64,000 bases of DNA from an uncultured Candidatus Saccharibacteria bacterium (GTDB lineage Bacteria; Patescibacteriota; Minisyncoccia; UBA6257; 2-01-FULL-56-20). Made by a program: the position numbers and the translations under genes. The stretch lies in contig CAYWDX010000002.1 of assembly GCA_964456235.1 (NCBI GenBank), forward strand, positions 142,061 through 206,060. Direction: 5' to 3'. Below the pieces are notes generated by a model that saw only the letters and a program-made list of their open reading frames with translations, was not told the DNA's origin and did no database searches. Of the stretch, positions 7,789 to 63,761 are shown piece after piece (the stretch's first letter is position 1; the number at the start of each line of letters is the position of its first letter).

Positions 7789-7799
7789 CCATAACGTAT

Positions 7800-8119
7800 T
7801 CCGGCGTAGCTCAATGGTAGAGCGGCTCCCTGTGGATACGCAGCTTCCCGAAGTAATTCGGGTTGAAAATCGAGGTGAATTGCTGGAAGCCTAATGCGGT
7901 AATGCGAAGGTAATCAGCAGCCAAGCCCAGTCGTGATTTCAAGATCACGACTGCGGAAGGTTCAGAGACTATCCCGTAAGGGAGTACTCCGGATTGCATA
8001 AAGTGATCCGGCGGAAGCGCCTCGCCCCTGCAACAGGGTGAAGATATAGTCCACTCCTAATGGAAACATTGGGGTTACGTGTAAGGAGATGGTTCCAGGT
8101 TCGAGTCCTGGCGCCGGAG
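7800..8119 (+). tRNA. tRNA gene interrupted by a group I intron in the anticodon loop. Anticodon is UGU (Thr) if splicing is after U33, or GUU (Asn) if after position 35
   Basis: 5' half TCCGGCG-TA-GCTC-AATGGTA-GAGC-G-GCTCC-CU gives acceptor, D arm and 5' anticodon stem. 3' half GGAGA-TGGTT-CCAGG-TTCGAGT-CCTGG-CGCCGGA-G gives 3' anticodon stem, T arm and acceptor, with perfect 7-bp acceptor pairing. The two halves are separated by ~250 nt. Confidence 0.7.
7832..8079 (+). ncRNA. group I (IC3-like) self-splicing intron inside the tRNA
   Basis: Intron begins GUG like the Azoarcus/Anabaena tRNA introns. It contains a GNRA-capped hairpin (CCCGAA-GUAA-UUCGGG), a P4–P6-like GGUGAAUUGCUGGAAGCCUAAUGCGG (cf. 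Azoarcus GGUGUCAAAUUCGGCGAAACCUAAGCGCC), a 10-bp hairpin CAGUCGUGAU...AUCACGACUG, and a P7-like GUUCAGAGACUAUCCCG (cf. Azoarcus GUAGAGACUAGACGG). It ends in G. No internal ORF. Confidence 0.65.
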
Positions 8120-8123
8120 CAGC

Positions 8124-13446: not shown

Positions 13447-13558
13447 AGAAAGTTATTTTATCTTAACATCTGTCGTGTGTTTTTCCAGCTTGTCGGACGG
13501 CAGGAGTACTGATGAGTGGCGGGTTTTAAAGCCTCAAAAAGCGAGGTTTTAGCGGATA

Positions 13559-13587
13559 TTGACAAAAAATATAATATATAGTATAAT
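13559..13587 (+). promoter_or_regulatory. consensus sigma70 promoter (TTGACA–17–TATAAT) with a strong RBS downstream
   Basis: TTGACA at 13559–13564, a 17-nt spacer, TATAAT at 13582–13587. GAGGAGG lies 7 nt before the ATG at 13648. Confidence 0.55.
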
Positions 13588-13647
13588 GCAGCCAGATACT
13601 TAAGTTCTGGTATCCAACCTTGCACGGCGCTTTGAGGAGGCGCAATT

Positions 13648-14235
13648 ATGACAATGCTCGGCTTAGCAACCTACCCCGGACTGTTCATCATCCAGGAAAC
13701 CGATGAGCAGGCGGAGGATCAGGCACGCATCGTCTACAACGACATACACCGCCGTCCCACCGATGAAGAGTGGGAAGCGTACCAAACCCGGACTGCCCAC
13801 GCCCGCAGAAGTGAGCCCTCCGAGTTTTTCATCGATGAGCTCGATTCAACCGCAGCTCTCCTCGGGGACGCCGCAATCACGGAGGAATCCGTGAGTGCAG
13901 CGGCACTGGTCGCGATCGAGAGCCCCGAGCTGCTCGTCACCCTCTACCGCAGCGCCCTCGACACCCATGGTGTCGAACCGAAGAGGAAGAAGGTGGTGCG
14001 GGAGAAGATTTTCCACCTGACCTCCTGCATCTTCGTGGCGATGGTCGACGCGCGGGGCGCGGAGACGATCAAGCGATCCCTCATGATGCGCCGCGATGTC
14101 GAAACGGGCGCCACGCTCCTCTCGACGCTTGGGCGTTTTGCCCGCACCGAGATCAAGCACGACTTCCGGCACCGCACCGCCGTCAAGATGTTCGAGGGCT
14201 TTCAACTCGACCCCTTCGACTCGATCCTCGGCTAG
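13648..14235 (+). CDS. hypothetical cytoplasmic protein (195 aa)
   Basis: ORF with a perfect promoter, RBS and downstream terminator; acidic N-terminus. No family recognised. Confidence 0.5.
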   Translation: MTMLGLATYPGLFIIQETDEQAEDQARIVYNDIHRRPTDEEWEAYQTRTAHARRSEPSEFFIDELDSTAALLGDAAITEESVSAAALVAIESPELLVTLYRSALDTHGVEPKRKKVVREKIFHLTSCIFVAMVDARGAETIKRSLMMRRDVETGATLLSTLGRFARTEIKHDFRHRTAVKMFEGFQLDPFDSILG

Positions 14236-14265
14236 CAAGTTCCTGTTCGCTTTTACAGCTCTACA

Positions 14266-14296
14266 GCCGCCCCACCCCCGGGCGGCTTTTTCTTTT
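14266..14296 (+). terminator. intrinsic terminator
   Basis: GCCGCCC-caccccc-GGGCGGC-TTTTTCTTTT. Confidence 0.7.
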
Positions 14297-14337
14297 AAAA
14301 ATTTCTTTTTGAAGTTTTCATTAAAGTGCAGCACGGC

Positions 14338-14380
14338 CCCAAAAGAAAAACCCGCCGCGTCATACAACATGACGCGACGG
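14338..14380 (-). terminator. intrinsic terminator for the minus-strand gene 14390–14866
   Basis: Minus strand: CCCGTCGCGTCAT-gttgt-ATGACGCGGCGGG-TTTTTCTTTT. Confidence 0.7.
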
Positions 14381-14389
14381 GCACAAATC

Positions 14390-14866
14390 TTAAATGTAGA
14401 GGTCGGCAGCCGCATCCCGCAGTTTCTTGATCCGCTCGCTCGGCAGAAAACGCCTCGTTCCGCGCAAATCCGCCTGAGCATTCATGAGTGGTACCTCGAG
14501 CGAATCGAGAAGTTCTCCGAGGCGTTTACCCGCGAATCTCACCTGGACACCTCCAGTCTGTCGCCCCATATCAAACTTAGTACTCAGGAACCCCGTAATG
14601 ACGTCTGCCGCAAATATGGCGCGCGACAGTCTTCTTGCCTCGAAGCTGATCGTAGTGTGGGGACCGACGGAAGTATGGCCATGGAAAGGTTCCCCATGGT
14701 TCAGTATAACGAGGTCCACGAGTGCGGCCAGAGCGATGGCCGAAAGTGTTGTTGCGTGTTCAAGTTCCTTCTGGATGGCCTCCAGGGCCACCGCAAATAC
14801 CGGATCGCTGGAGAACCAGGACATGGTTACCGTTACGGTGTCCTTCTTCCTCTGTTGTTTTGGCAT
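14390..14866 (-). CDS. hypothetical protein (158 aa)
   Basis: Minus-strand ORF with AAGGAGG 4 nt upstream of the ATG. Contains NHGEPFHGHTSVGPHTT. Preferred over the overlapping +strand ORF 14096–14983. Confidence 0.55.
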   Translation of the reverse strand: MPKQQRKKDTVTVTMSWFSSDPVFAVALEAIQKELEHATTLSAIALAALVDLVILNHGEPFHGHTSVGPHTTISFEARRLSRAIFAADVITGFLSTKFDMGRQTGGVQVRFAGKRLGELLDSLEVPLMNAQADLRGTRRFLPSERIKKLRDAAADLYI

Positions 14867-14981
14867 CCCGCCTCCTTATTGCATTTTCGTGGCATGCAAT
14901 CGCCAGAAGTGTTGAGATATTACTGCTTAGACAGTAACATATTATTAAAAATCTGTCAAGATTGCGCGTTGAGCGCAGATT

Positions 14982-15011
14982 AAAAAGAAAAGCCCGCCGC
15001 AGACGACGGGC
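14982..15011 (-). terminator. intrinsic terminator for the DUF1059 gene
   Basis: Minus strand: GCCCG-tcgtctgcgg-CGGGC-TTTTCTTTTT. Confidence 0.55.
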
Positions 15012-15039
15012 TCATTCGCTACAAGCGATCCAGTTGCGG

Positions 15040-15255
15040 TTACGCGTCTGGCGTCATCTCCCACTTTTTCATAAACTCGGCACGCCATTTGTCCCCGTCC
15101 TCTTTCGGCATGGCTTTCATATCCGCGAGCATGTCGGGATGTGCCTTGTTTAAGTGCTTCATGCCATTGGCAATCATCTCCTCCGGCGTTTCTCCACTGA
15201 TTACGACACTACACGAGGCCGGACCGCCCATATCTGCACAGGTCATCTTTTTCAT
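15040..15255 (-). CDS. DUF1059-family small metal-binding protein
   Basis: 71 aa, MKKMTCADMGGPASCSVVISGETPEEMIANGMKHLNKAHPDMLADMKAM: the characteristic Cys pair plus GETxEE. Confidence 0.5.
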   Translation of the reverse strand: MKKMTCADMGGPASCSVVISGETPEEMIANGMKHLNKAHPDMLADMKAMPKEDGDKWRAEFMKKWEMTPDA

Positions 15256-15340
15256 AATTTTTTAATTAAGAATTTATTAACTGCCGCACTATCCACTACA
15301 CTATGACTGCACTATCGCGACCTTTTCTGCAGAATCATCA

Positions 15341-15499
15341 TCACCTCATACGGAAAGAATTGTACACGATCAGCAGAAGCACGATGACGCCGATAAACAA
15401 GGCGACACGAATGCTCAACTGAAGAATCCCCTCGAGCCCCATGCTCAGGAGCACCAAGAAGATAATAGCTAAAATGAGAAGGATGGCGATGACTTCCAT
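15341..15499 (-). CDS. candidate 52-aa hydrophobic micro-protein (two TM helices); not in the supplied ORF track
   Basis: Minus-strand ATG at 15499 gives MEVIAILLILAIIFLVLLSMGLEGILQLSIRVALFIGVIVLLLIVYNSFRMR*. The overlapping ORF-track 68-aa frame looks non-protein-like. Confidence 0.3.
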   Translation of the reverse strand: MEVIAILLILAIIFLVLLSMGLEGILQLSIRVALFIGVIVLLLIVYNSFRMR

Positions 15500-15546
15500 A
15501 GTTCCAGACAAACCTCAAGCAGCGTAGCCGGAGGAAAGTGATAATT

Positions 15547-35405: not shown

Positions 35406-37697
35406 ATGATGTTCGGCCGGCATGGGTTCAGCGAGGTGCGAAAAAGGGATGGGCGGGTTGTTACGTTTGACCAAACCAAGATCACGAATGCGATCGCTAA
35501 AGCGATGCATGTGACGGGCGAAGCCAAATCGCACGAGGATGCACAGAAAGTTTCGGAGCAGGTGGTGGTTGCGCTCTCAAAAAGATTCCCCAAGGAGCAC
35601 ATTCCGACGATTGAGGAGGTCCAAGACATCGTCGAATCGCAGCTGATCCTCATGGACTACGCAAAAACGGCGAAGGCGTACATTTTGTACCGCGCCGACC
35701 GCGCCGAGATCCGCGAAAAGAAGCGCGAGATCCCCGCGCGCGTAAAACAACTCGCCGAAGAGAGTAAAAAATATTTCCGCAACCAACTCGCGGAGTTTGT
35801 GTACTACCGCACCTATGCCAATTGGATTCCCGAAGAAGGCCGCCGCGAAACTTGGATTGAAACCGTGGATCGCTATATGAGTTTCATGCGCGAGAACCTC
35901 GGGAGCAAATTGACCGAAGCAGAATACAACGAAGTGCGCGAAGGAATTTTGCGCCAGGAAGCGATGCCTTCGATGCGCCTCATGCAATTTGCCGGCAAGG
36001 CGGCGCGCAAAACAAATGTGGCGGCATACAACTGTTCGTACATCGCTCCGCAAAAATTAGAGGACTTCGCCGAGATTATGTACGTCTCGATGTGCGGCAC
36101 TGGCGCGGGATTCTCGGTAGAAAGTTCGAACGTGCAGAAATTGCCGCAGATCAAAAAACAAACTGGCAAGAAACTCGACACATTCGTCATCCCCGACAGC
36201 AAAGAAGGATGGTGCGACTCGCTCACGCTCGGTTTGAAAACCTGGTTTGACGGCAAAGATATTGAATTCGATTTCTCGCAGCTCCGCCCCGCAGGCGCTC
36301 GCTTGATGACGATGGGCGGCAAGAGTTCCGGCCCCGATCCCCTCCGCTCACTGCTCGCCTTTGCCCGCAACAAAATCATTTCCCGCCAGGGCCGGCGACT
36401 CTCCAATGTAGATGTGCACGATATTTGCTGCAAAGTCGGCGAAATCGTGGTTGCGGGAGGCGTCCGCCGCAGTGCGATGATCTCGCTTTCCGATCTCGAT
36501 GACGTCGAAATGCGCACGGCAAAGACCGGCCAGTTCTGGATGACGGAACCGCAGCGCGCGATGGCGAACAATTCGGCGGTCTACAGCGAAAAGCCGAACT
36601 CAACGACCTTTATGGAAGAATGGCTTTCGCTTGCGAAGAGTCGGACCGGCGAGCGCGGCATTTTCAATCGCGATGGCCTTTCAAAACAAATTCCGGAGCG
36701 ACGCATAAAAGCGCTCCGCGGCGACACGTCGCGCATCGGCACGAATCCGTGCGGCGAAATTCTTTTGCAGTCGAAACAATTCTGCAATCTCTCTGAAGTG
36801 GTAGCGCGCGCGGAAGACACGACGGAATCACTCTTGAGAAAAACGCGCCTCGCGACCATCCTCGGCACGTACCAGTCGACGCTCACGAACTTCCCCTATC
36901 TTTCAAAAGAGTGGCGCGAGAATTGCGAGAAGGAACGATTGCTCGGCGTTTCCATCACCGGCCAGTGGGATTGCCCCGCCGTGCGTAACGACGACATGCT
37001 CACGAAGATGCGCGAGCTTGCGATCAGCGTCAATCAGGAATATGCAAAGCGGTTTGGCGTGAACGCTTCGACCTCGATTACCTGCGTGAAGCCGTCGGGC
37101 ACCGTGTCGCAAACCGTTGACGCGGCATCCGGCATGCACCCGCGCCACGCGAAATACTATATCCGCCGCGTGCGCATCTCGGCGACCGACGGACTCTTCC
37201 AGATGATGAAGGACCAGAAGATGCAATACTTCCCGGAAGTTGGCCAATCGCTTTCCGCCGCGAGCACCTATGTGTTGGAATTCCCCGTGAAGGCGCCGGA
37301 TGGCGCGGTGACGAAAGACGATCTTCCCGCGCTCGCCCAGCTCGAACATTGGAAGCGCGTGAAGACGAATTTCACCGAACACAATCCATCCGTGACGGTT
37401 TCGATCGGCGACAACGAATGGGTGGGGGTCGCGAACTGGATCTACGAGAACTGGGACATGGTGGGCGGGCTTTCCTTCCTCCCCCGCGAAGACCACGCCT
37501 ACCTGCTTGCCCCGTATGAAGAGATTAATAAAGAGCGCTACGAAGCCATGTCAGCGAAAATGCCCGCGATCGACTTCTCGCAGATTCTCCTCTATGAAAA
37601 GGAAGATATGACTGACGTGAAGAAAGAGCTCGCTTGCGTGGGCGGCGTGTGCGAGATCGAAGACGTGGCGGCCACGACTGAAGTAACTACCAAATAA
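35406..37697 (+). CDS. nrdJ: class II ribonucleotide reductase (adenosylcobalamin-dependent), with N-terminal ATP-cone
   Basis: ATP-cone RVVTFDQTKITNAIAKA; RNR core motifs NPCGEI and CNLSEV; C-terminal CVGGVCEIED Cys pair. Confidence 0.85.
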   Translation: MMFGRHGFSEVRKRDGRVVTFDQTKITNAIAKAMHVTGEAKSHEDAQKVSEQVVVALSKRFPKEHIPTIEEVQDIVESQLILMDYAKTAKAYILYRADRAEIREKKREIPARVKQLAEESKKYFRNQLAEFVYYRTYANWIPEEGRRETWIETVDRYMSFMRENLGSKLTEAEYNEVREGILRQEAMPSMRLMQFAGKAARKTNVAAYNCSYIAPQKLEDFAEIMYVSMCGTGAGFSVESSNVQKLPQIKKQTGKKLDTFVIPDSKEGWCDSLTLGLKTWFDGKDIEFDFSQLRPAGARLMTMGGKSSGPDPLRSLLAFARNKIISRQGRRLSNVDVHDICCKVGEIVVAGGVRRSAMISLSDLDDVEMRTAKTGQFWMTEPQRAMANNSAVYSEKPNSTTFMEEWLSLAKSRTGERGIFNRDGLSKQIPERRIKALRGDTSRIGTNPCGEILLQSKQFCNLSEVVARAEDTTESLLRKTRLATILGTYQSTLTNFPYLSKEWRENCEKERLLGVSITGQWDCPAVRNDDMLTKMRELAISVNQEYAKRFGVNASTSITCVKPSGTVSQTVDAASGMHPRHAKYYIRRVRISATDGLFQMMKDQKMQYFPEVGQSLSAASTYVLEFPVKAPDGAVTKDDLPALAQLEHWKRVKTNFTEHNPSVTVSIGDNEWVGVANWIYENWDMVGGLSFLPREDHAYLLAPYEEINKERYEAMSAKMPAIDFSQILLYEKEDMTDVKKELACVGGVCEIEDVAATTEVTTK

Positions 37698-38262
37698 ACG
37701 GGATGAGGCGCTTGGTACGCGCCCGATAGCCAGGATGTTCTGATGGGAATTGCTGCGCCATAATCGCGTCCTCGTTATACGTTCGGATAATAAAAGCGGT
37801 GACGCCGCAGATGAAGCCGAGGTAGGCGGTGAGCGTGCCGATGAGAAGGGCAGTGCCAAAGAGGGCGAAGGCCATCCCGGTGTAAATAGGGTGGCGAACC
37901 AGTGCATAGGGCCCGCGCTGAACGAGCGCGGGGTTCTCCTTGACGGCGATCATGCCCGACCAGTTGCGGCCGAGGATGATGCGCGCCCAAATGGCGAAAG
38001 CGATGCCGCAAAGATCAATCAGAAGGCCGATCACGCCAAGGGGCAGCGTCTTCGGCGTCAGCTGAATAAGATGCGGGGGCGGAGGCGTTCCGGCGTTTGA
38101 AAAAATGAAAGTGATTGCGAGCATGATCAGGATGGTCGCGATCACCTGGGCCGCGGTGCGCTCAACGCGCACATTTTTCTTCGCCGTAACATATCCGGGC
38201 AGCCAAACCAAAAGCAAGAGCAGCCACGAATAAAATGCGATGTCGGTATACGTGAGCGGCAT
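37687..38262 (-). CDS. isoprenylcysteine carboxyl methyltransferase (ICMT)/PEMT-family membrane methyltransferase
   Basis: Polytopic, with RHPIYTG...FGTALL and EEDAIMAQQFP-type C-terminal motifs. Confidence 0.6.
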   Translation of the reverse strand: MPLTYTDIAFYSWLLLLLVWLPGYVTAKKNVRVERTAAQVIATILIMLAITFIFSNAGTPPPPHLIQLTPKTLPLGVIGLLIDLCGIAFAIWARIILGRNWSGMIAVKENPALVQRGPYALVRHPIYTGMAFALFGTALLIGTLTAYLGFICGVTAFIIRTYNEDAIMAQQFPSEHPGYRARTKRLIPFIW

Positions 38263-38271
38263 GCCCCGATC

Positions 38272-38805
38272 TCAAAGTGCGCCGAGCGAGTTCCCGATGA
38301 GCTCGTACTGTTTCCCGTTCAATGCGACGAGATCGTTTGCGATCGTGTGTGAGCTCGCGGCAAAACTTGCGCCAAGCGGCAGTTCGGCAATATCGAACAT
38401 AATGCCGCCCTGATTCAGCATCGCAACGAGAAAATAATTGGCGCTGCCCAGGGGTGTTATCTTTTTTACGACAACCGCAGCATCGTCAACGCCATCGTGG
38501 TTCAAATCACCAAACGAAGTGTCTTCTTGCATAAGCTGGACCGAGCTGCCGAGGCGCACCCACTTCCCGCTCGCGTCGCGGTACGGCGCGTTCAAAAGAT
38601 CATTCATGTTGGGCCACCTGCCATTATTTTCTACGACGGGGAAACCAACCGGCGCCATCGCCTGCGTGGCGATTTGGACTGCATTGCCAGCGACGTTCAC
38701 GACGGCCTGGGCCGTAGCAGGCACGATCGCGCTGCCCGCGCCTCGGACGCCCGTCAAAAGAAGGGTCGCGGCCTGCAAAAGCGATGCAAGAGCGGCTAGA
38801 TTCAT
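38272..38805 (-). CDS. hypothetical secreted protein
   Basis: Start at MNLAALASLLQAATLLLTGVRGAGSA (signal peptide). Contains DLNHDGVDD. Confidence 0.45.
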   Translation of the reverse strand: MNLAALASLLQAATLLLTGVRGAGSAIVPATAQAVVNVAGNAVQIATQAMAPVGFPVVENNGRWPNMNDLLNAPYRDASGKWVRLGSSVQLMQEDTSFGDLNHDGVDDAAVVVKKITPLGSANYFLVAMLNQGGIMFDIAELPLGASFAASSHTIANDLVALNGKQYELIGNSLGAL

Positions 38806-38869
38806 ACGCGTAACTATATCACAAAAAGAACGCCCCGCCGAAATTCGACGGGGCACATGGCGCGCGCCA

Positions 38870-39934
38870 TTACTCTCGCTTGCGCCAGTAACGGGTAAAG
38901 TTGTGGTCGCCGTAACGACGGAAGCTCAACTCTTCGTACTCGAAAGAAGGTTGCGCATCCGGCGGCAGCGCGACGTCGGGATCCGAAAAAGCCATTTGCG
39001 GGAAAAAATTCAGCTCTCTCCCCTCGAAGATCCGCTTGCGCGGATTCCCTTTTCCGTCTTTTCCGTACGCCAAACGCGGCGCCGTGGTGACCAAGATCTC
39101 ATCCATGAGATCCTTCTTGAGGAAGTCGCCGATCGTGCTCGGCCCACCCTCCGCCATCACATAGTCCACCTTAAAGTCGCGCTTCAGGGTTTCAAGCGCG
39201 AACCGAGGCAGGTCGCCGCGCTCACCGGTGAAGGTGACGATGTTCGTGTTCGCAAAGCCATCCCTACTCTTCGTCATCGCCTCGAGCTTCTTCGCTCCTT
39301 CGGGAGTCGTGAAGATCACGATGCGCTGGCCCTTGAGATCAAAGATCGCCGCGTCCTCGGGCAACTCACCGCTTCCCGAAAAAATAGCGATCATCGGATG
39401 GCGTTCGCCCTTGTTTTTGAGGCGCCAATCGGCAAGCTCGGGATCCTCGACGGTGACGGCAAAACCATTAACCGGTTCGCCATCAATCCGAAAATCCAAT
39501 TTGCCGTTTGCGATGCTCTTTTTGAACTCGCGGTCTTCGGCGCGAACCGTTTCCGCCCCAAGGAGGACCGCGTCCGCATGCGTGCGGCCGATATCCATCA
39601 CCCAGCGATCGGCGGCGAGCAGTGAAAGCGCCCCGCCGCCGGAGTATCCCTCGATGCCGTAGCTTCCCACGCCGTCGATCGACGAGACGAAATTCGTCAT
39701 CGCGATGCTGCGGTCCGGGCGCGGCTCCTGCATCCTTACCTCGCCCCAAAGCCGCAAAACTTTTTCGGCCGTAGGAACGACCACGCCGAGCGTGCGGTCA
39801 GGAAGAGCCTCAAAAGGATGGAGGCCTTCCCAATAATTCTTGCCCTCGTCTTGCGCCTCCATAGCTTTGGCCACCTTTCCCCCTCTATGAAATTTATCCG
39901 CCTCGTCTTTCATGAGTTGTAAATTTGACTCCAT
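38870..39934 (-). CDS. RibD C-terminal-domain/DHFR-like reductase family protein
   Basis: ...AVLLGAETVRAEDREF...RHPMIAIFSGSGELP...DYVMAEGGPSTIGDFLKKDLMDEILVTTAPRL... resembles the RibD_C (pyrimidine reductase/DHFR-like) fold. Start chosen at MESNLQLM. Confidence 0.45.
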   Translation of the reverse strand: MESNLQLMKDEADKFHRGGKVAKAMEAQDEGKNYWEGLHPFEALPDRTLGVVVPTAEKVLRLWGEVRMQEPRPDRSIAMTNFVSSIDGVGSYGIEGYSGGGALSLLAADRWVMDIGRTHADAVLLGAETVRAEDREFKKSIANGKLDFRIDGEPVNGFAVTVEDPELADWRLKNKGERHPMIAIFSGSGELPEDAAIFDLKGQRIVIFTTPEGAKKLEAMTKSRDGFANTNIVTFTGERGDLPRFALETLKRDFKVDYVMAEGGPSTIGDFLKKDLMDEILVTTAPRLAYGKDGKGNPRKRIFEGRELNFFPQMAFSDPDVALPPDAQPSFEYEELSFRRYGDHNFTRYWRKRE

Positions 39935-39994
39935 AAGGAGTGTAAATGAACACCTTTTGAAAGGCAACCTCGCGGGTGATGGTTCGGGAATAGA

Positions 39995-53473: not shown

Positions 53474-53567
53474 ACCTATGCCTCGAGTTTACGCCGCGCC
53501 GCGGCGGCGCGCAAATGAAAAAGAAGCGGCCGCAGATGCGGCTTCGACGATGGTATACTGTAATTAA

Positions 53568-54461
53568 GTGCTTACTCTTTTTAATCCCCGGGGGATTGTT
53601 GCCGCCGCGCAAAGCAGCCTGATGCTTTTTTCGCTCGCGGTCATGATTTCGGTCGCGCTCGTCACGCTCGGCATCGCGTATTATTGTGCACAGAAGTATC
53701 GCGTGCGCGGCGCGAAAAAGCCTGCCGCGTCCCGCGCCAGAGCCGCAGCGCAGATCCGCGTGCAAACGCCGCCCCATAAGGCGATCGAAGCCCTGGAGCA
53801 AATCGGCATCTGGCTCATCCCGATCGCCATTGTCGTGATCCTTGGCCCCATCACCTGGCGCGCCGCGCACGCACTCGATCCGTATCGCCCACTCGCCGCG
53901 GAGATGACGCAGAAGCCGCTCACGGTGCAGGTGGTCGCGCTCAACTGGAAATGGCTTTTCATTTATCCGGAACAAAATATTGCTGCGGTGAATATTTTGG
54001 AAATTCCTGCGGGAGTTCCGGTTGATTTTGAACTTACCGCGAGCAATGCGCCGATGAATTCGTTTTGGATTCCGGCTCTCGGCGGCCAAATTTATGCTAT
54101 GCCCGGGATGATGACGCAACTGCACCTGATGGCTGACGCGCCCGGCGTGTTTGCCGGCAAAGCCGCGGAGATCAATGGGCCAGGATACGCCGGCATGACT
54201 TTCATAACCAAAGCCGCCACGCAACAAGAGTTTGACGCGTGGGTCACCTTGGTGAAAAAGGGCTCAAACCCGCTTTCTAAAGACTCTTTCGATATGCTGA
54301 AGCAGCCAAGCCAAAATATTCCCCCCGCATATTATTCATCGGTTGAAAATGGATTATTTAATGAAATTTTAATGGAAAATATGAGTGGCATGGGATCTTC
54401 GACGGACGGCGGATCCTCCATGGACAGCATGGGGAGCATGAACCATTCGATGAGCTATTAA
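53568..54461 (+). CDS. cyoA: cytochrome bo3-type quinol oxidase subunit II (no CuA ligands)
   Basis: Two TM helices then a cupredoxin fold with ...FELTASNAPMNSFWIPALGGQIYAMPGM..., matching E. coli CyoA (SNSVMNSFFIPRLGSQ) rather than the CuA-binding HxxxxxC.C..H motif. GTG start assumed; an alternative ATG lies at ~53622. Confidence 0.8.
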   Translation: MLTLFNPRGIVAAAQSSLMLFSLAVMISVALVTLGIAYYCAQKYRVRGAKKPAASRARAAAQIRVQTPPHKAIEALEQIGIWLIPIAIVVILGPITWRAAHALDPYRPLAAEMTQKPLTVQVVALNWKWLFIYPEQNIAAVNILEIPAGVPVDFELTASNAPMNSFWIPALGGQIYAMPGMMTQLHLMADAPGVFAGKAAEINGPGYAGMTFITKAATQQEFDAWVTLVKKGSNPLSKDSFDMLKQPSQNIPPAYYSSVENGLFNEILMENMSGMGSSTDGGSSMDSMGSMNHSMSY

Positions 54462-56449
54462 TGAATGCCATGACATCAAAATTTCTTTTGGGAAGATTGA
54501 CCTGGGATGCATTGCCACATGCGTGGTACACCGTCTGCGGGACTGCCGCACTCATCACCATGCTGGTAGCCGCCGCCGCGCTCCTCACCTATTACCGACG
54601 TTGGACGTGGCTTTGGAAAGAATGGCTCACCTCAACCGATCCAAAAAAAATCGGCATCATGTACATCATCATCGCATCGCTCATGCTCTTCCGCGGGGCG
54701 CTCGACGCCGCCATGATCTGGGCGCAACAGGCAACCGCCGTCGGGTCGCAGAGGCTTCTTGACGCCAGCCACTTCCAGCAGATCTTCACCGCACACGGCG
54801 ACATCATGGTATTTTTCGTCACGATGGGATTTTTGTTTGGCTTGATCAACCTTATCGTTCCCTTGCAGATCGGCGCGCGCGATCTCGCGTTCCCCTTTCT
54901 CAACTCGCTTGGGTTTTGGCTCTACGCCGCAGGAGCGGCACTCGTCAATCTGTTTTTCGTGTTGGGCGGTGAATTTGCCGCGACCGGCTGGCTCGCAACC
55001 GCGCCGCTCTCCGAACTTTCATTCAGCCCGGGCGTCGGCATGGATTATTGGATTTGGAGCTTGCAGATTTCCGGCATCGGCACGCTGATCGGCGGCATCA
55101 ATTTCCTCGTCACTATTATAAAGATGCGCGCGCCCGGCATGACGCTCATGAAAATGCCGCTCTTTGCCTGGTCATCGCTCTGCAGCATGCTCCTCGTCGT
55201 TTCCGTATTCCCCATTCTCACCATTACCATCGGCCTTCTCTTCCTCGATCGTTTTTTTGGGATGCATTTTTTCACCCTGACGGGTGGCGGCAACATCATG
55301 ATGTACACGAACATGATTTGGATGTGGGGGCATCCGGAAGTTTACATCCTCGTACTGCCCACGTTTGGCATTTGGTCCGAAATCATCGCGACGTTCACGG
55401 GGCGTCCGGTAAAAGGATACGGGTCGCTCGTGATCGCGCTCCTCGGCATCACCGCGCTCTCCTATCTCGTGTGGCTGCACCATTTTTTCACGATGGGCGC
55501 CGGCGCGGACGTGAACGCATTCTTCGGCATCATGACGATGTTCATCGCAATCCCAACGGCGGTGCAAATTTTCAATTGGATCCGAACGATGTACCGCGCG
55601 CGGATCATTTTTAAAACGCCCATGTATTGGTTCATGGGATTCGTGAGCACGTTCACGTTCGGCGGGATTGCGGGCGTTTTGATGGCGTCCCCCGCCGCAG
55701 ATTTCCAACTCCACAATAGCTTATTTCTCGTCGCGCACTTCCACACGATGGTGATCGGCGGCGCACTCTTCGGAATTTTTGCGGGCATCACCTACTGGTG
55801 GCCGAAGATCATGGGTTTCACGCTGGATGAGCGTCTGGGCCGCATGGCATTCTGGTTTTGGCTGGTCGGCTTTTTCGTCTCGTTCGTTCCCCTCTATATA
55901 TTAGGGTTCATGGGCGCCACCCGGCGTCTCGACCATTACGACGCCTCGACCGGGTTTCAGATCTGGTTCATCATGGCGGCGGTGGGTCTCGTCATTATCG
56001 GGATCGGCGCCGCGATCCAGGTGGTGCAAGTTTGGGTGAGCGTGAAGCGGCGCCGAAAGAATCGCGTCGGCGGCGACCCGTGGGATGGCCGCACGCTTGA
56101 ATGGAGCACGCCATCGCCGGTGCCTTTCTACAATTTTGCAGTGATTCCGCGCGTGCACGAGCGTGACGCGTGGGCGGCGATGAAAGAGCAGGCGGATCGC
56201 GAGGGAGGATTCAAAAAGCCGCGCTATCAAAAGATTGAGATGGCGAAGAATACCCCGCTCGGCATTTATATTGCGGTTTTTGCGTTCCTCTTCGGATTCG
56301 CGATGATATGGCACATCACCTGGCTCGCCTTTGGGTCGCTCGCGGGAGCCATCATTTGCGTCATCATGCATGCCTTTGACGAACGCACCGAATACGTGGT
56401 CCCCGCCCACGAAGTCGAAGTCGTGGAAGCGAATTTAATAAAATCTTAA
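54461..56449 (+). CDS. cyoB: heme-copper quinol oxidase subunit I
   Basis: 662 aa, 12+ TM. ...WMWGHPEVYILVLP...HHFFTMG...FFGIMTMFIAIPTAV...HNSLFLVAHFH...: canonical HCO subunit I histidine ligands. ATGA overlap with cyoA. Confidence 0.9.
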   Translation: MNAMTSKFLLGRLTWDALPHAWYTVCGTAALITMLVAAAALLTYYRRWTWLWKEWLTSTDPKKIGIMYIIIASLMLFRGALDAAMIWAQQATAVGSQRLLDASHFQQIFTAHGDIMVFFVTMGFLFGLINLIVPLQIGARDLAFPFLNSLGFWLYAAGAALVNLFFVLGGEFAATGWLATAPLSELSFSPGVGMDYWIWSLQISGIGTLIGGINFLVTIIKMRAPGMTLMKMPLFAWSSLCSMLLVVSVFPILTITIGLLFLDRFFGMHFFTLTGGGNIMMYTNMIWMWGHPEVYILVLPTFGIWSEIIATFTGRPVKGYGSLVIALLGITALSYLVWLHHFFTMGAGADVNAFFGIMTMFIAIPTAVQIFNWIRTMYRARIIFKTPMYWFMGFVSTFTFGGIAGVLMASPAADFQLHNSLFLVAHFHTMVIGGALFGIFAGITYWWPKIMGFTLDERLGRMAFWFWLVGFFVSFVPLYILGFMGATRRLDHYDASTGFQIWFIMAAVGLVIIGIGAAIQVVQVWVSVKRRRKNRVGGDPWDGRTLEWSTPSPVPFYNFAVIPRVHERDAWAAMKEQADREGGFKKPRYQKIEMAKNTPLGIYIAVFAFLFGFAMIWHITWLAFGSLAGAIICVIMHAFDERTEYVVPAHEVEVVEANLIKS

Positions 56450-56466
56450 TTAAAATTTTATTAACG

Positions 56467-57024
56467 ATGGAAAACGATAAAACTATTTTCGGTTTCTGGG
56501 TCTACTTGATGACGGACCTCATCATGTTCGCCGCGCTTTTCGCCGTATTCGCCGTCCTGCGCACGAGTACCGCCGGCGGTCCCTCGAGCGAGCATCTTTT
56601 CGACCTTCCGTTCGCCCTCAATGAAACGTTAATCTTGCTCACGAGCAGCTTCACGTGCGGCCTCGCGATGATTGCGGCTCATCGCAACAAAAAGGGCCCA
56701 GCCCTATTCGGGTTCTCAATAACCTTCGCGCTCGGCGCTGCGTTCATCGCCCTCGAACTGAACGAATTTTCGCGGTTCATCGGCACGGGAGCGAGCTGGA
56801 CCCGCAGCGCTTTCCTTTCCTCATATTTTGCGCTCGTCGGGATGCACGGACTCCACATTTTGGTGGGCCTTCTCTGGATCCTTGCGAGCATCATCTACCT
56901 TGCCGCGCGGGGGCTGACCAAATCAGGCATTTCAAGACTCACGCGCCTCGCGCTCTTCTGGCACTTTCTCGACATCGTCTGGATCTTCATCTTCACCATC
57001 GTCTACCTCGTGGGGGTGCTTTAA
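56467..57024 (+). CDS. cyoC: quinol oxidase subunit III
   Basis: 185 aa, 5 TM, ...LVGMHGLHILVGLLWI...FWHFLDIVWIFIFTIVYL. Confidence 0.85.
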   Translation: MENDKTIFGFWVYLMTDLIMFAALFAVFAVLRTSTAGGPSSEHLFDLPFALNETLILLTSSFTCGLAMIAAHRNKKGPALFGFSITFALGAAFIALELNEFSRFIGTGASWTRSAFLSSYFALVGMHGLHILVGLLWILASIIYLAARGLTKSGISRLTRLALFWHFLDIVWIFIFTIVYLVGVL

Positions 57025-57039
57025 TAAATTTTTAATCTC

Positions 57040-57387
57040 ATGCGCATCATCACCTACCTCACCGGATTCATCCTCTCCCTTACACTCACCCTCGCCGCGT
57101 ACTTCATCGTCACGGCACACGTGGCGTCAGGGCACGTATTCCTCACGCACCACTTCGTCATGATCGCCGCCCTCATCCTCGCGCTCGCGCAGCTGATCGT
57201 GCAGATGATTTTCTTCCTCCATCTCCACGAAGAAACCGGCCCGCGTTGGAATCTCGCGATTTTCATCTCGACGATCGGCCTCGTGCTCATCATTGTCGTT
57301 GGTTCGCTCTGGATCATGAACCATCTAAACTACAACATGATGCCGGCCGAACTACAGGCACAAAGCACGGTCCTGAACCACGAATAA
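57040..57387 (+). CDS. cyoD: quinol oxidase subunit IV
   Basis: 115 aa, 3 TM, positioned as the fourth gene of the operon. Confidence 0.75.
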   Translation: MRIITYLTGFILSLTLTLAAYFIVTAHVASGHVFLTHHFVMIAALILALAQLIVQMIFFLHLHEETGPRWNLAIFISTIGLVLIIVVGSLWIMNHLNYNMMPAELQAQSTVLNHE

Positions 57388-57391
57388 CGCC

Positions 57392-58270
57392 ATGAAATTT
57401 GGGGATTATTATTCTCTCGCCAAACCGGGCATCGTATATGGAAACGTACTGATGACGCTCGGCGGATTTCTGCTCGCCACGCGAGTGGATGCCTTCCCAC
57501 TCGGCGCCAATGTACCGCTCCTCCTCTGGACACTCCTCGGCATGGCGCTCGTCATCGCGTCCGCCGGTGCATTCAATAATTATCTTGACCGCGATATCGA
57601 CGGCGCGATGGCGCGCACCAGGCACCGGCCGCTCGTCGCAAAGCGCATCACCACGCGGGCGAGCCTAACCCTCGGCGCGGTCTTCGGCGTTCTTGGATTT
57701 TTTATCCTCATCGCGCACGTAAATATCATCACCGCGGTCGTTGCCGCTGTTGGATTCGTTTTCTACCTATTCGTCTACACCCTGTGGTCCAAACGACGCT
57801 CGGTATTTGGCACCATCCTCGGAAGCATCGCGGGCGCCGTGCCGCCGGTGGCTGGTTACGCGGCGGTCAGCGGACGCGTTGATGCGAACGCGCTCATATT
57901 GTTTGCCATTCTCGTCCTTTGGCAAATGCCGCACTTTTTTGCGATCGGCATTTATCGGCGCGAAGATTATCTCAATGCGAACATTCCCATCATGCCGGTG
58001 AAACACGGTGTGCGGGCGACGAAGCGGGCCATTCTCGCCTACGTCGTCGCATTCGCGATCGTCGCGATCCTGCTCGGGGTGATGGGCTACGCCGGCATCA
58101 GTTATTTTGTCGTCGCCGCGTCTCTCTCTATTATTTGGCTCATCTATTCGGTCAGCGGATTCTGGACGCGCGATGATCGCCGCTGGGCCCGCCAAATGTT
58201 TTTCATATCGCTCGCCGTCATCGTTTTTCTCTTCGCCGCCATCGCCATAGACGCCCTCTTCCGGGCGTGA
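57392..58270 (+). CDS. cyoE: protoheme IX farnesyltransferase (heme O synthase)
   Basis: UbiA-family: ...NNYLDRDIDGAMARTRHRPL... and ...QMPHFFAIGIYRREDY.... Confidence 0.85.
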   Translation: MKFGDYYSLAKPGIVYGNVLMTLGGFLLATRVDAFPLGANVPLLLWTLLGMALVIASAGAFNNYLDRDIDGAMARTRHRPLVAKRITTRASLTLGAVFGVLGFFILIAHVNIITAVVAAVGFVFYLFVYTLWSKRRSVFGTILGSIAGAVPPVAGYAAVSGRVDANALILFAILVLWQMPHFFAIGIYRREDYLNANIPIMPVKHGVRATKRAILAYVVAFAIVAILLGVMGYAGISYFVVAASLSIIWLIYSVSGFWTRDDRRWARQMFFISLAVIVFLFAAIAIDALFRA

Positions 58271-58310: not shown

Positions 58311-58745
58311 ATGGTCGTGTCGATTCTTTTTGGGACAATCGCCCTGGCACTCGTCGTGCTACTTGACCAGCTGATCCACTACGCTCGCGAAGCTCGCCGA
58401 GTGTGGGCTATCACCGCGGATGAACGTTTCACGAGCAAGGTGAATAATCATCGGTGGTACGCGAGAATACTGCTCGGCTGCGCAATCGGCATACCCATCA
58501 CCCTGTTCGCGCTCGCTCCAATCCTCGCGCGCGAACAACAGCATGTGCCGCCGCGAGTTTTGATCCTTGCGAGCCGAGCCATTTCCACGACGCTGATCGT
58601 GACAATGATGATCACCCTATTCTGGCTGAACGGGCTGAAAAAAGGGCGCAAAGCGCTCCACCGGATCCTCGGCTGGGCCGTGGTAGCGCAATTCGGCGTA
58701 CTCATGGCGATCGGTACCGTTCTTTTGGTCACAACCTATTATTAG
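58311..58745 (+). CDS. hypothetical membrane protein (4 TM) distal to the cyo operon
   Basis: 144 aa, hydrophobic. Followed by a strong terminator. Confidence 0.5.
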   Translation: MVVSILFGTIALALVVLLDQLIHYAREARRVWAITADERFTSKVNNHRWYARILLGCAIGIPITLFALAPILAREQQHVPPRVLILASRAISTTLIVTMMITLFWLNGLKKGRKALHRILGWAVVAQFGVLMAIGTVLLVTTYY

Positions 58746-58763
58746 CGGATCGACCTCCGCGTT

Positions 58764-58792
58764 GGCGTCCCTGAAGGGACGCCGTTTTTTTA
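58764..58792 (+). terminator. intrinsic terminator ending the cyo transcription unit
   Basis: GGCGTCCC-tgaa-GGGACGCC-GTTTTTTT. Confidence 0.8.
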
Positions 58793-60596: not shown

Positions 60597-63500
60597 TTAT
60601 GGAGGAAGCGGGCGACCAGGATAGTAGACCTGCAAGTTCGGCATCGGCAAGTTCAGGGCCTGACACTGGAGCATATTGATCCAGCGCCGGGTCGTCTGAT
60701 AGACGAAACCGGTTGGGGTCTGTGCGGTCGGGAGGCCAAGCGGTACCCACGGCGCCAAAACGGGGCCGTTGTACTTCACCTGGAAACGCTCCACCGCCGC
60801 AAAATCAGCTTGGCTGTAAACTCCGGTGATCGGAAGATTCAAGCCAAGATTCTGGTTCAGGAAGATCTGGAGTTTAGCGACTTCGTTACGGTCATTGTTC
60901 CAGCCGAGATGGATATAATCACGGAGGTAAATGCCGCACGTGCTCGCACCCAAGACCTGTCCGCCGAGAAGCGTGATTGACGCGTTCACTGTCGCAAGAA
61001 GGGTATTGTTCACGCCATAGAAGCGTGCGTACACCGTCTTCAAGCCGGGAACTGGAAGGAGTGTCCACGGCATCGTCGTCGCATACGGGATTTTGCCGGT
61101 TGAAGTGGCGAAATCCGAGTAGTTGGAAATTTCCATTTGGTATGCACCGGTGCCATAGAGCGAGAGCATGACGCTCGTCGTCGGAGTGGATGATGCACCG
61201 TTGTTGATAGCAATGAAGTAAGCACTGCCACCACCACCGGTCGTCACCACAACTCCACCTCCACCGCCACCTCCCCCGCCGCCGCCACCACCACCCCCTC
61301 CACCGCCACCTCCGCCTCCGCCGCCGCTGCCCGAACTCGTCGGGTTAACAACAATGGAAACAGTAGAGCTGGTGTTGGGATTCGTGTTGGTAGACGAAGC
61401 GTTTTCGCCGATCGTCGCGGTGTTCGTGATCGTCGTTCCGGCAGTGCCGGCATTGACGGTCGCCGCGATCGTGAGCGTTGCGGTTGTCGAGGCTGTCATA
61501 TCACCAATCGTCCACGTGCCCGTCGAGCTCGCGTAGGAACCCTGGGTCGCCGTGGCATTCACGAAGGTAAGGCTGGACGACAGCGTGTCGGTCGCAACCA
61601 CTCCCGTAGAAGTGGACGGGCCGAGCGCGGAGGCGGTCAAGGTGAAATGCACCGTGCTGCCTTCGGTCGTTGACGTCACATCAGCGATCTTTGTGATCGT
61701 GAGATTTGCCGTTGGGATCGTAGACGAAGGCGTGGTCGTTGAACCACCGCCTCCACCACCGCCTCCCCCGCCGCCTGACGTCTGCACGTTCATCGTAACG
61801 GACGAAGAGTTGTTCGCGGGATTGTTGTCCACGAGCGAACTCAATTCGCTGATCGTCGCCGTGTTCGTGATCGCCTGGCCCGCTTGGTTCGCGTTCACCA
61901 TGACCGTGATCGCAAGGGTTGCGGTCGCGTTCGGGTTGAGCGTTCCAATCGTCCAGTCGCCGGTCGTCAAGCTGTACGAGCCCTGTGAGGCTGCCACCGA
62001 CACGAAGCTCACGCCCGAAGGCAAGAGATCGTGCGCTGCGACAACCGTCGAGCTCGCCGGACCGAACGCCGTAGCGGTCAGCGTATAGATGACCGTGGCG
62101 CCCGCAGTCGGCGTTGCATTGTTCACCGTTTTCACGATGGCAATGTCAGCCGTCGTCGTCGCGGTCGTCGGCGTGGAAGTGGTATTCCCGCCGCCGTTCG
62201 GCGCGACCGTCACTGATACCGAAGCGTTGTTGTTCCCCGGATTTTGGTCCGTGGAAGAAGCGCTCTCGTTTACGATCGCGGTGTTCGTGATCGTCGTGCC
62301 TGCGGTTCCCGGATTCACGTGTACCGTGATCGTCAGCGTACTCGTCGAGTGCGCCGCCATGTCGCCGATCGTCCACGTGCCGGTAAGCGGTGCGTAGGAT
62401 CCGCGCGAGGCGGTCGAGCTTACGAAGCTCGTGCCGGACGGGAGCGTGTCGGTCGCCACAACGCCGGTTGACGTTGCGGGGCCGAGCGCGGACACCGTGA
62501 GCGTATAGTTCACCGTGCCGCCTTCAACCGTCGACGTGACATCCGCCATTTTTGCGATCGCAAGATCAGCCGAAGGAGGATTGTTGCCTCCGGTCGTCCC
62601 TGCGACCGTAATCGTTACGGACACGCTGTTATTTCCCGGATTGGGATCCGTGGAAGAAGCGTCCTCGAGAGCCGTTGCCGTGTTCGTGATCGTCGTCCCC
62701 GCGGTCCCCGCGTTTACGGTAACCGTAAGCGCGAGTGTCGCCGTTGTTGAGGCTGCCATGTCACCGATCGTCCACGTGCCGTTTCCGGCCGTGTACACAC
62801 CGATGCTTGGCGTCGCGCCCACAAACGTAAGGCCAGCGGGCAACGTATCGGTCGCGACCACGCCCGTTGAGGTAGACGGCCCCAACGCGCTCACGGTCAC
62901 GAGATAATGGATCGTTTGTCCCTCGTTCGGGTTTGAATTGTCAACCGTCTTGCTCACCATGAGATCGCCGTTCGATGCTGTTGCTACCGGCGGCGGAACT
63001 ACTCCTGGTTGAGCATTCAAGATGACTCCCGTGATCCCCGACGCCTGCGTGCAGTTCGACTGCACGAAGGTGACGCTTGGGCCGATGACGATCGGCCCCG
63101 ATGCGGCGATCCGCGCCCGCACGGTCAGCTGCGCAAACCCTGCGCCATTCACCGTGCCAAGACTCCAGACGCCCGTCGCGTTGTCATACGTTCCCGGAGA
63201 AACGGAAGACGACAGAAACGAGAGTGCGGGCTGCGCGAGACCGGTCGTTACCGTGATGATGGTGTTGGTCGTCACCGCCGGCGCACCCGTGAAGGTGAAC
63301 GTGACGATGTCGCCAACATTCGGCGTTTGGTTGTCCGCGCTCGCAGTGAATCCTGCGGCGACGGAACAAACCGCCGTACCAACGGCAGCGAATGCCTGTG
63401 CGGAAACCTGGCCAATGGCACCGAGCGTGTCCTGGGCAGCAACACAATAATTGTAGTTGCCATTCGGGACACTCAAATCGGTCAACGTGATGCCGTTCGT

Positions 63501-63761
63501 TTGAGCGAGTAAATCGTTCAAATTACTGGTGCAGGTGCCGGACGTCGTCCGGTACACGTTATAGGCGCCGATGCCGTTGCTCGCCGTAGCCGTTTGCCAC
63601 GCAAGCGTGACATCATTGCCAGCGACCGTTGCCACGAGACCTTGAACCTGGCTTACCGACGGAGAAGATGCAAGAGTTGGTGTGCCGAGCCCCGGTACCA
63701 TGACCAGGGACAGAAGCAGCAAGCCTCCTCCGGCGATCTTTTTAATCGTAGTAATTTTCAT
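60597..63761 (-). CDS. giant (1054 aa) surface protein: signal peptide, several DUF11 repeats, poly-Gly spacers, C-terminal peptidoglycan-binding-like domain
   Basis: N-terminal signal peptide. Repeats of ...TLTVSALGP(A/S)TSTGVVATDTLP(A/S)G(L/T)(T/S)FV...Y...TGTWTIGDMAA..TLT(I/V)TV.VN.GTAGTTITNTA... (DUF11). Gly runs of ~24 and ~12. C-terminus has ...VAKLQIFLNQNLGLNLPITGVYSQADFAAVERFQVKYN... (PG_binding_1-like). Confidence 0.65.
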   Translation of the reverse strand: MKITTIKKIAGGGLLLLSLVMVPGLGTPTLASSPSVSQVQGLVATVAGNDVTLAWQTATASNGIGAYNVYRTTSGTCTSNLNDLLAQTNGITLTDLSVPNGNYNYCVAAQDTLGAIGQVSAQAFAAVGTAVCSVAAGFTASADNQTPNVGDIVTFTFTGAPAVTTNTIITVTTGLAQPALSFLSSSVSPGTYDNATGVWSLGTVNGAGFAQLTVRARIAASGPIVIGPSVTFVQSNCTQASGITGVILNAQPGVVPPPVATASNGDLMVSKTVDNSNPNEGQTIHYLVTVSALGPSTSTGVVATDTLPAGLTFVGATPSIGVYTAGNGTWTIGDMAASTTATLALTVTVNAGTAGTTITNTATALEDASSTDPNPGNNSVSVTITVAGTTGGNNPPSADLAIAKMADVTSTVEGGTVNYTLTVSALGPATSTGVVATDTLPSGTSFVSSTASRGSYAPLTGTWTIGDMAAHSTSTLTITVHVNPGTAGTTITNTAIVNESASSTDQNPGNNNASVSVTVAPNGGGNTTSTPTTATTTADIAIVKTVNNATPTAGATVIYTLTATAFGPASSTVVAAHDLLPSGVSFVSVAASQGSYSLTTGDWTIGTLNPNATATLAITVMVNANQAGQAITNTATISELSSLVDNNPANNSSSVTMNVQTSGGGGGGGGGGGSTTTPSSTIPTANLTITKIADVTSTTEGSTVHFTLTASALGPSTSTGVVATDTLSSSLTFVNATATQGSYASSTGTWTIGDMTASTTATLTIAATVNAGTAGTTITNTATIGENASSTNTNPNTSSTVSIVVNPTSSGSGGGGGGGGGGGGGGGGGGGGGGGGVVVTTGGGGSAYFIAINNGASSTPTTSVMLSLYGTGAYQMEISNYSDFATSTGKIPYATTMPWTLLPVPGLKTVYARFYGVNNTLLATVNASITLLGGQVLGASTCGIYLRDYIHLGWNNDRNEVAKLQIFLNQNLGLNLPITGVYSQADFAAVERFQVKYNGPVLAPWVPLGLPTAQTPTGFVYQTTRRWINMLQCQALNLPMPNLQVYYPGRPLPP
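61254..61325 (-). repeat. ~24 consecutive glycine codons (GGN)n inside the giant surface protein gene
   Basis: Plus strand reads (NCC)24 in frame. A second run of ~12 Gly codons lies at ~61743–61775. Confidence 0.8.

Follow-up and report, generated by a model that had tools for sequence, protein, structure and literature searches.

The 64,000-nucleotide stretch analysed here (the window; contig CAYWDX010000002.1, positions 142,061 to 206,060) comes from a bacterium of the candidate phyla radiation (CPR) and carries at 53568-58270 a complete cyoABCDE operon for a bo3-type quinol oxidase and its heme O synthase. The encoded enzyme belongs to a clade of Cyo oxidases in which the lysine of the K proton channel has been replaced in every sequence compared, as has the invariant arginine close to the low-spin heme. 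In the window, the glutamate at the channel entry is replaced as well. The metal ligands, the D channel and the quinol site are conserved. The most likely reading, to which we give a probability of about 75%, is that this would be a working quinol:O2 oxidoreductase supplied with protons through the D channel or along a water wire. A cyo operon in a CPR genome is already documented and that observation, as made in a preliminary description of this DNA, is not new. The clade-wide failure of one defining feature of the family in these Cyo enzymes is apparently unreported; no prior description of a lysine-less CPR oxidase was found in the literature, with subscription journals outside coverage.

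Results

K-pathway residues are replaced across a clade

The K pathway (K362, T359, S299 and Y288 in E. coli CyoB, together with a glutamate of subunit II) belongs to the definition of A-type oxidases (PMC3084760) and brings in one or two protons as the active site is reduced (PMC6423279). When the functional residues of the E. coli enzyme are mapped onto CyoB of the window, the K-channel lysine is the sole catalytic, D-channel or quinol-site residue that is not conserved. The E. coli sequence PTGVK362IFNW reads PTAVQ369IFNW in the window, with Gln369 encoded by CAA at 55565-55567 (+ strand); the position corresponds to bovine K319. At the channel entry, Glu89 of E. coli CyoA is replaced by Gln78 (codon at 53799-53801, + strand). 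Thr366, Ser306 and Tyr295, the counterparts of Thr359, Ser299 and Tyr288, are kept. A further replacement in CyoB, Trp87 (TGG, 54719-54721, + strand), falls on the invariant Arg80 of E. coli, bovine Arg38. The bovine mapping used a bovine sequence 100% identical to 1occ_A. Bovine R38 and Paracoccus R54 are in contact with the low-spin heme. The preliminary description overlooked the replacement of the K-channel lysine and the subunit II glutamate, on account of which the enzyme is not a canonical Cyo.

The 120 closest homologues of the window CyoB (67-74% identity) carry glutamine (114) or leucine (6) in the K362 column and never lysine, and the 18 further functional columns checked vary little or not at all. 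GTDB representative genomes contain 20 such lysine-less loci, seven with Gln and 13 with Leu. Lysine is found in 60/60 of the other, canonical Cyo loci, which include a second Saccharibacteria/Nomurabacteria clade, Chlamydiae and Proteobacteria. At the codon level the path from Lys (AAR) to Gln (CAR) to Leu (CTG/TTG) takes one substitution at each step.

A blind screen for columns that are fixed in canonical Cyo yet different in the lysine-less clade returned only five positions in CyoB: R80W (100% versus 100%), K362Q/L, S145G, V136L and I111V. In CyoA the same screen returned E89, which is Glu in 98% of canonical sequences. Clade members with Gln at the lysine position have Q, T or E in this column; those with Leu are varied, mostly hydrophobic, occasionally Asp or Thr and never Glu. 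The reciprocal screen identified W22, L81, I86, Y155, F165 and F166 as fixed in the clade, along with a one-residue insertion. These changes lie in transmembrane helices TM0, TM1 and TM3, close in sequence to the quinol-site residues.

The remaining catalytic machinery is intact

CyoB of the window and CyoB of E. coli share 60% identity across an alignment of 642 residues. All six histidine ligands are found, in agreement with the preliminary description: H112 and H428 (E. coli H106 and H421, heme b), H426 (H419, heme o3) and H291, H340 and H341 (H284, H333 and H334, CuB). Tyr295 is also the cross-linked tyrosine (E. coli Tyr288). The D channel is retained as D141, N130, N148 and E293 (E. coli D135, N124, N142 and E286), with the motif WGHPEVY. 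The residues of the high-affinity quinol site are present as R78, D82, H104 and Q107 (E. coli R71, D75, H98 and Q101). Neither the window nor any of its 120 closest homologues departs, in E. coli numbering, from the metal ligands, the tyrosine, Glu286, Asp135, Asn124, Asn142, Arg481/482, Arg71 or His98; Asp75 and Gln101 are each replaced in a single homologue of the 120. Since catalytic, D-channel and quinol-site residues are held constant over this range of sequences, purifying selection on a working enzyme is indicated.

Subunit II was originally described as lacking the CuA ligands and bearing the CyoA-like motif SNAPMNSFWIP, and it does. The protein has a single cysteine (C40, in TM1), and the loop found where CuA oxidases carry CxExCGxxHxxM reads AAEINGPGYAGM. 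The SNAPMNSFWIP motif begins at residue 159 and the C-terminal COX_ARM domain matches with E=2e-13. No signal peptide or lipobox was found in CyoA.

Phylogenetic position of the lysine-less oxidases

A neighbour-joining tree of CyoB (100 bootstraps) was rooted with B. subtilis QoxB, whose sequence was rebuilt from a PDB alignment. The lysine-less group is monophyletic in 100/100 bootstraps, and the Leu group (100/100) is nested inside a grade of Gln sequences. CyoB of the window clusters in 96/100 with four loci (L003-L006; Patescibacteria, Parcubacteria and Paceibacterota). It nests within the bo3 radiation and branch lengths are not inflated. A CyoB phylogeny had been suggested as a means to detect horizontal acquisition; in this tree CyoB groups with CPR sequences and no recent transfer is indicated.

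The Gln members are of Parcubacteria/Microgenomates type and the Leu members form one Saccharibacteria group, whose loci are labelled Saccharibacteria or Patescibacteria apart from one labelled just 'bacterium'. All named database homologues of CyoB belong to Patescibacteria lineages and, judged by these sequence relationships, the clade is CPR-only for all named or checked members. Three of the GTDB loci carry other labels. L015 ('uncultured Gammaproteobacteria', CAYPEN010000002.1, 407,743 bp) encodes a ClpB 72-74% identical to Levybacteria/Patescibacteria proteins, and since these are the named relatives of its ClpB the label is wrong. CyoB of L007 (CAZPUU010000069.1, also labelled 'uncultured Gammaproteobacteria') hardly differs from its counterpart in a Levyibacteriota metagenome-assembled genome (MAG), with which it groups tightly. 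Both L015 and L007 appear to belong to the Patescibacteria. The 'Methylomirabilota' label of L004 (GC 0.42) may likewise be mistaken.

Locus organisation differs between the two types. Gln members retain the cyoABCDE order; in the Saccharibacteria Leu members cyoE is divergent and upstream, and cyoD is longer. In the Saccharibacteria Leu clade, cyo has a type II NADH dehydrogenase (NDH-2) as its neighbour in five loci (L010, L011, L014, L016 and L049) and an FAD-linked oxidase (FAD_binding_4/FAD-oxidase_C) in eight (L010, L011, L012, L014, L016, L017, L020 and L023). From gene content, this combination with cyo looks like a minimal quinone-linked chain, and the arrangement fits a real chain of this kind. 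No comparable neighbours occur near the window operon.

A conserved membrane protein of about 85 residues, without a Pfam family, follows cyoE in 13 lysine-less and eight canonical Saccharibacteria loci (L004, L008, L011-L013, L015-L020, L022-L024, L033, L038, L039, L042, L046, L049 and L052; for example at 11755-12048 of L015); the window has no such gene. The protein, which shows a QxCxTGL-like motif and a His near its N-terminus, could be a CPR-specific factor for oxidase assembly or heme handling. DUF420-like proteins, below threshold, were seen in three loci of the Gln type.

Gene content and transcription of the operon

The five open reading frames (ORFs) are co-directional on the + strand, and Pfam and NCBIfam assignments bear out the complete quinol oxidase and heme O synthase operon originally described. 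cyoA (53568-54461) starts with GTG and encodes subunit II of the quinol oxidase (297 aa; Pfam COX2 and COX_ARM). It is followed by cyoB (54461-56449) for the catalytic subunit I (662 aa; COX1, E=4e-135), cyoC (56467-57024) for subunit III (185 aa; COX3), cyoD (57040-57387) for subunit IV (115 aa; COX4_pro) and cyoE (57392-58270) for heme O synthase (protoheme IX farnesyltransferase, 292 aa; UbiA, E=1.4e-61). The spacings are -1 (a TAATG overlap), 17, 15 and 4 nt; the preliminary description gave 3-17 nt. The best NCBIfam models for the five ORFs are CyoA, CyoB, CyoC, CyoD and heme o synthase, Cyo models leading for every subunit. CyoC exceeds its equivalog cutoff (230.2 bits against 223.75), and CyoE exceeds those of NF003348 (342.6 against 285) and TIGR01473 (305.6 against 210.3). 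The aspartate-rich prenyl-diphosphate motif of CyoE reads NNYLDRDID in the translation. E. coli bo3 is the best relative with a solved structure, with E=1.7e-250 for CyoB and E=1.4e-55 for CyoA.

The preliminary description had the five genes end in a strong terminator; none follows the cyoE stop. A strong, intrinsic terminator-like hairpin (9 bp stem with 7 G-C pairs, then T7; 58763-58784 in the interval 58763-58791, + strand) lies about 500 nt downstream and is the likely end of the operon. Between it and cyoE sits orf144 (58311-58745, + strand), which encodes a predicted multi-pass membrane protein of 144 aa. Since orf144 starts 40 nt after cyoE, is preceded by a ggagg ribosome-binding site and has no terminator between it and the cyoE stop, it is probably co-transcribed as the sixth gene of the cyo transcription unit. 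orf144 has no Pfam or NCBIfam match and recurs only in L001, another assembly of the same organism. It shows no similarity to the DUF420-like and 85-aa membrane proteins found beside cyoE in related loci.

At the other end, 94 nt (53474-53567) separate cyoA from the divergent dnaG. A consensus promoter scan upstream of cyoA gave no match above chance. An extended -10-like TGgTATACT at 53551-53559, just 8 nt ahead of the GTG, might mark a promoter or a leaderless start of cyoA, which we infer from the sequence only. An alignment of residues 4-18 with residues 29-43 of E. coli CyoA speaks for the long GTG start.

Genomic setting

The valyl-tRNA synthetase (ValRS) of the window has its best named matches in 'Minisyncoccia bacterium' and 'Patescibacteria group bacterium' (75-77% identity), followed by Paceibacterota and Niyogi-, Wildermuth-, Jorgensen- and Harrisonbacteria. 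On this sequence evidence the host is a member of the Patescibacteria (CPR), class Paceibacteria/Minisyncoccia, Parcubacteria. Pfam analysis supports the features of a CPR-like genome noted previously: a DUF5671 protein at 1233-2195, a truncated ValRS (728 aa), an alanyl-tRNA synthetase (AlaRS, 616 aa) without its C-terminal domain and an RpoA of 272 aa with no match to the alpha-subunit C-terminal domain. A CAP-domain surface protein is also present. Flanked by dnaG/rpoD on one side and CPR-type surface proteins on the other, the cyo operon lies mid-window, with hallmark genes on both sides. As was claimed, no other respiratory family was detected in the 64 kb by Pfam scans, and the translations agree; ORFs beyond the Pfam scan were judged by translation or from a precomputed Pfam list for locus L083. 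An extension of about 3 kb past the left window end, where PfkB and a fructose-bisphosphate aldolase are encoded, likewise holds none.

The cyo genes have a GC content of 0.547-0.578, compared with 0.565±0.034 for the genes of the window. Their GC at third codon positions (GC3) falls within the background of 0.667±0.064, with that of cyoD about 2 SD high. Recent horizontal acquisition is rejected, since GC and GC3 match the background and the nearest relatives are CPR rather than Proteobacteria. CyoB, CyoE, DnaG, ValRS, AlaRS, RpoA and the ribonucleotide reductase of the window are each on record from one 207,684-bp contig, and an independent Logan assembly repeats dnaG-cyoABCDE-orf144 and their neighbours. 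With the proteins on one contig and the junctions repeated, misassembly and misbinning are rejected.

Several other features of the window are of note. The ribonucleotide reductase is a B12-dependent class II enzyme with an ATP-cone (35406-37697, + strand); being oxygen-independent, it fits an organism that tolerates but does not require O2. A tRNA-Thr(UGU) gene (7800-8120, + strand) has its anticodon loop split by a group I intron of 248 nt (Rfam RF00028, 75 bits, E=2.8e-17). The Rfam match spans 7783-8073, ARAGORN detects the split tRNA only when introns are allowed, and Rfam and ARAGORN place the intron boundaries about 50 nt apart. According to the Pfam list for L083, a single 522-aa ORF (2213-3781, - strand) joins a ribulose-phosphate 3-epimerase with one half, the N-terminal, of a transketolase split in two; the C-terminal half is a gene of its own (239-1228), and the DUF5671 membrane protein lies between the halves. 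A repeat-rich surface protein of 1054 aa (60597-63761, - strand) contains about 27 consecutive Gly, besides several poly-Gly tracts of lesser length. The gene-position collection holds no record of exactly this sequence, perhaps because the repeats assemble variably. The intervals 13450-15500 and 38260-39990 contain only low-complexity, implausible ORFs and no Rfam match at gathering thresholds.

Discussion

The operon is genuine, forms part of the chromosome and is most likely functional. Its gene identities, catalytic residues and host-matching composition are clear, as are the CPR host and the substitutions that run through the clade. Enzymatic activity, the proton route, the source of quinone and heme and the physiological role would, by extrapolation from these sequences, be as follows. 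CyoE would farnesylate scavenged protoheme to heme O, and CyoABCD would assemble as a heme b/heme o3-CuB quinol:O2 oxidoreductase. Electrons from membrane quinol, probably obtained from a host or the environment, would reduce O2 to water. A CPR-restricted sublineage of Cyo appears to have given up the K pathway with the D pathway and quinol site left intact. Protons for reduction of the active site would then arrive via the D pathway, or else along what is left of the K path as a polar, water-filled route, and the enzyme would probably turn over more slowly than E. coli bo3 or be regulated in another way. The role would be O2 removal or aerotolerance, possibly with some gain in proton-motive force. 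Both ionisable K-path residues have been lost together, the rest is strictly conserved in more than 120 sequences and branches are not inflated; these observations argue that the enzymes are functional yet independent of the K path. With electron donors locally absent, and in view of the literature on related genomes, scavenging with borrowed quinone and heme may be likelier than energy conservation.

Several observations weigh against a working oxidase of this kind. In E. coli bo3 and in aa3 of R. sphaeroides, mutation of K362 all but abolishes activity with O2, and the reciprocal screen revealed no obvious ionisable residue that could stand in for K362. K362 and the subunit II glutamate have been reported as important or essential for the K pathway in model enzymes (PMC9687966, PMC6423279). 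CyoB (942.7 against 1020.35), CyoA (216.7 against 266.2) and CyoD (80.7 against 81.45) score below their NCBIfam equivalog cutoffs. The start and promoter of cyoA are uncertain, the automatic gene call of a different assembly having used Met19 (279 aa). The 64 kb and the 3 kb extension contain no quinone reductase, no gene of quinone or heme biosynthesis and no ATP synthase, and published Parcubacteria genomes with cyo lack quinone biosynthesis and a quinone-dependent NAD(P)H dehydrogenase (PMC4508563).

An ordinary bo3 of the E. coli kind, fully proton-pumping and acting as the terminal oxidase of a complete aerobic chain whose other genes lie outside the window, would agree with the E. coli gene order, the 60% identity of CyoB, the intact D channel, quinol site and metal ligands, and the proposal of occasional aerobic respiration in Saccharimonadia (PMC13293708). 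We consider it unlikely, given replacement of the K-pathway lysine and subunit II glutamate, the change of Arg80 to Trp, the absence of a donor dehydrogenase and ATP synthase from the 64 kb, and related Parcubacteria genomes without NADH dehydrogenase or quinone synthesis (PMC4508563). A change of chemistry, by which the enzyme would act mainly as a quinol peroxidase using H2O2, or as another reductase detoxifying reactive oxygen species (ROS) or NO, and not as an O2 reductase, is also improbable in our judgement. It would account for the clade-wide loss of both key K-path residues with all else conserved. In 1998 Zaslavsky & Gennis reportedly saw that R. sphaeroides K362M is blocked with O2 yet turns over with H2O2. 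CPR genomes are moreover poor in ROS defences, and their cyo has been framed as a detoxification system (PMC9938205). The CuB histidines, the residues of the His-Tyr cross-link and Glu286 are nevertheless of the O2-reductase type and not those of NO reductase, and aerobic iron oxidisers possess A-family oxidases without a K channel (10.1101/2020.03.01.968255).

Slow decay of a non-functional relic of horizontal transfer would explain why residues regarded as essential have gone and why no partner genes lie nearby. This is very unlikely: the five ORFs are full-length, the catalytic residues are invariant in 120 homologues (67-74% identity) from several CPR classes, branch lengths are not inflated, and operon organisation and translational coupling have been retained. 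Least credible of all, with hardly any chance of being correct, is an assembly or binning artefact that joined an operon from a co-occurring proteobacterium to this genome. Cyo is typical of Proteobacteria and several public MAGs with close relatives bear non-CPR labels, but the operon's mid-window position between dnaG/rpoD and CPR-type surface proteins, the exact proteins on one 207,684-bp contig, the junctions repeated in the Logan assembly, the matching GC and GC3 and the CPR affiliation of the nearest CyoB relatives all speak against such an origin, and the 'Gammaproteobacteria' label of L015 is contradicted by its own ClpB.

Beyond the working oxidase that we prefer, we suggest, tentatively and at rather less than even odds, that the lysine-less Cyo of CPR bacteria is a distinct functional subtype of A-family heme-copper oxidase, free of the K path, in which all protons would use the D pathway or H2O2 would be favoured over O2. 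Its signature would comprise Gln or Leu in place of Lys362, a missing entry glutamate in subunit II, Trp in place of Arg80 by the low-spin heme, and remodelling of TM0, TM1 and TM3 near the quinol site. The subtype may be tuned to scavenged, host-derived quinones. If correct, it would amount to a natural test of how dispensable the K pathway is and would provide a mechanistic basis for the view that CPR cyo serves O2/ROS detoxification and not respiration. Every clade member examined carries natural substitutions at the K-channel lysine, the entry glutamate or the arginine by the low-spin heme, positions that decades of mutagenesis have treated as indispensable. Should the enzymes be active, an A-type oxidase would be workable without a K pathway; should they be slow or prefer peroxide, this would explain detoxification-like rather than respiratory cyo in ultra-small symbionts. 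One more CPR cyo operon alone adds little, being textbook by now.

Comparison with known systems

Since 2013-2015, cyo operons have been reported from Parcubacteria, Saccharibacteria and Doudnabacteria, usually with O2 scavenging as the interpretation. Nelson & Stegen 2015 reported all four CytO subunits in two Parcubacteria genomes (PMC4508563), and their scaffold likewise bears ValRS. In Saccharibacteria, Doudnabacteria and Parcubacteria from soil, Nicolas 2021 described cyoABCDE genes arranged as in E. coli and proposed that they came from other bacteria (PMC8407418); for Beam et al. 2020 the inferred donors were Proteobacteria (PMC7507113). Scavenging or detoxification of O2 was put forward by Starr 2018 citing Kantor 2013 (PMC6031116) and later elsewhere (PMC9938205, PMC13293708), so that the role of O2 scavenger proposed for an isolated bo3 in such lineages, as mentioned in the preliminary description, agrees with the literature (see also PMC4508563). 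The window operon resembles the published ones in its CPR host, cyoABCDE synteny, isolation from respiratory genes and CPR-specific CyoB clustering. Nothing essential differs, and loss of the K-channel lysine and glutamate is not reported there; Starr 2018, on T. rhizospherense, mentions only a 'discrepancy in the functional residues' (PMC6031116).

E. coli bo3 (CyoABCD with CyoE; PDB 1FFT, 6WTI, 8F68) shares with the window the same five genes in the same order, the heme and CuB ligands, the tyrosine, the D-channel and quinol-site residues and a subunit II with COX_ARM and no CuA. The window enzyme differs in having Gln for K362, Gln for E89 of CyoA and Trp for R80, and further in TM0, TM1 and TM3 (S145G, S159F, L160F and the one-residue insertion). 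CyoA lacks the lipoprotein signal peptide, an extra membrane ORF lies downstream and the rest of the chain is absent, at least locally. B. subtilis aa3-600 (QoxABCD, PDB 6KOB), the next-best structure (E=6.6e-192), is likewise a four-subunit A-family quinol oxidase without CuA. It differs in keeping K and R at the two positions and in using heme A and menaquinol, and NCBIfam Qox models score below Cyo models for every subunit.

A precedent for the missing lysine comes from acidophilic Fe2+ oxidisers, which have active A-family cytochrome c oxidases without the K-channel lysine and subunit II glutamate and with the D channel kept (bioRxiv 10.1101/2020.03.01.968255). In both cases the lysine and the entry glutamate are replaced non-conservatively. 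The acidophile enzymes are CuA-containing, heme A cytochrome c oxidases from a deep-branching COX1 lineage, whereas the window operon has no CuA site and encodes a heme O synthase and no heme A synthase. Since the lysine-less state of the CPR enzymes is derived within the bo3 radiation, loss of the K channel in the two groups is convergent and not homologous.

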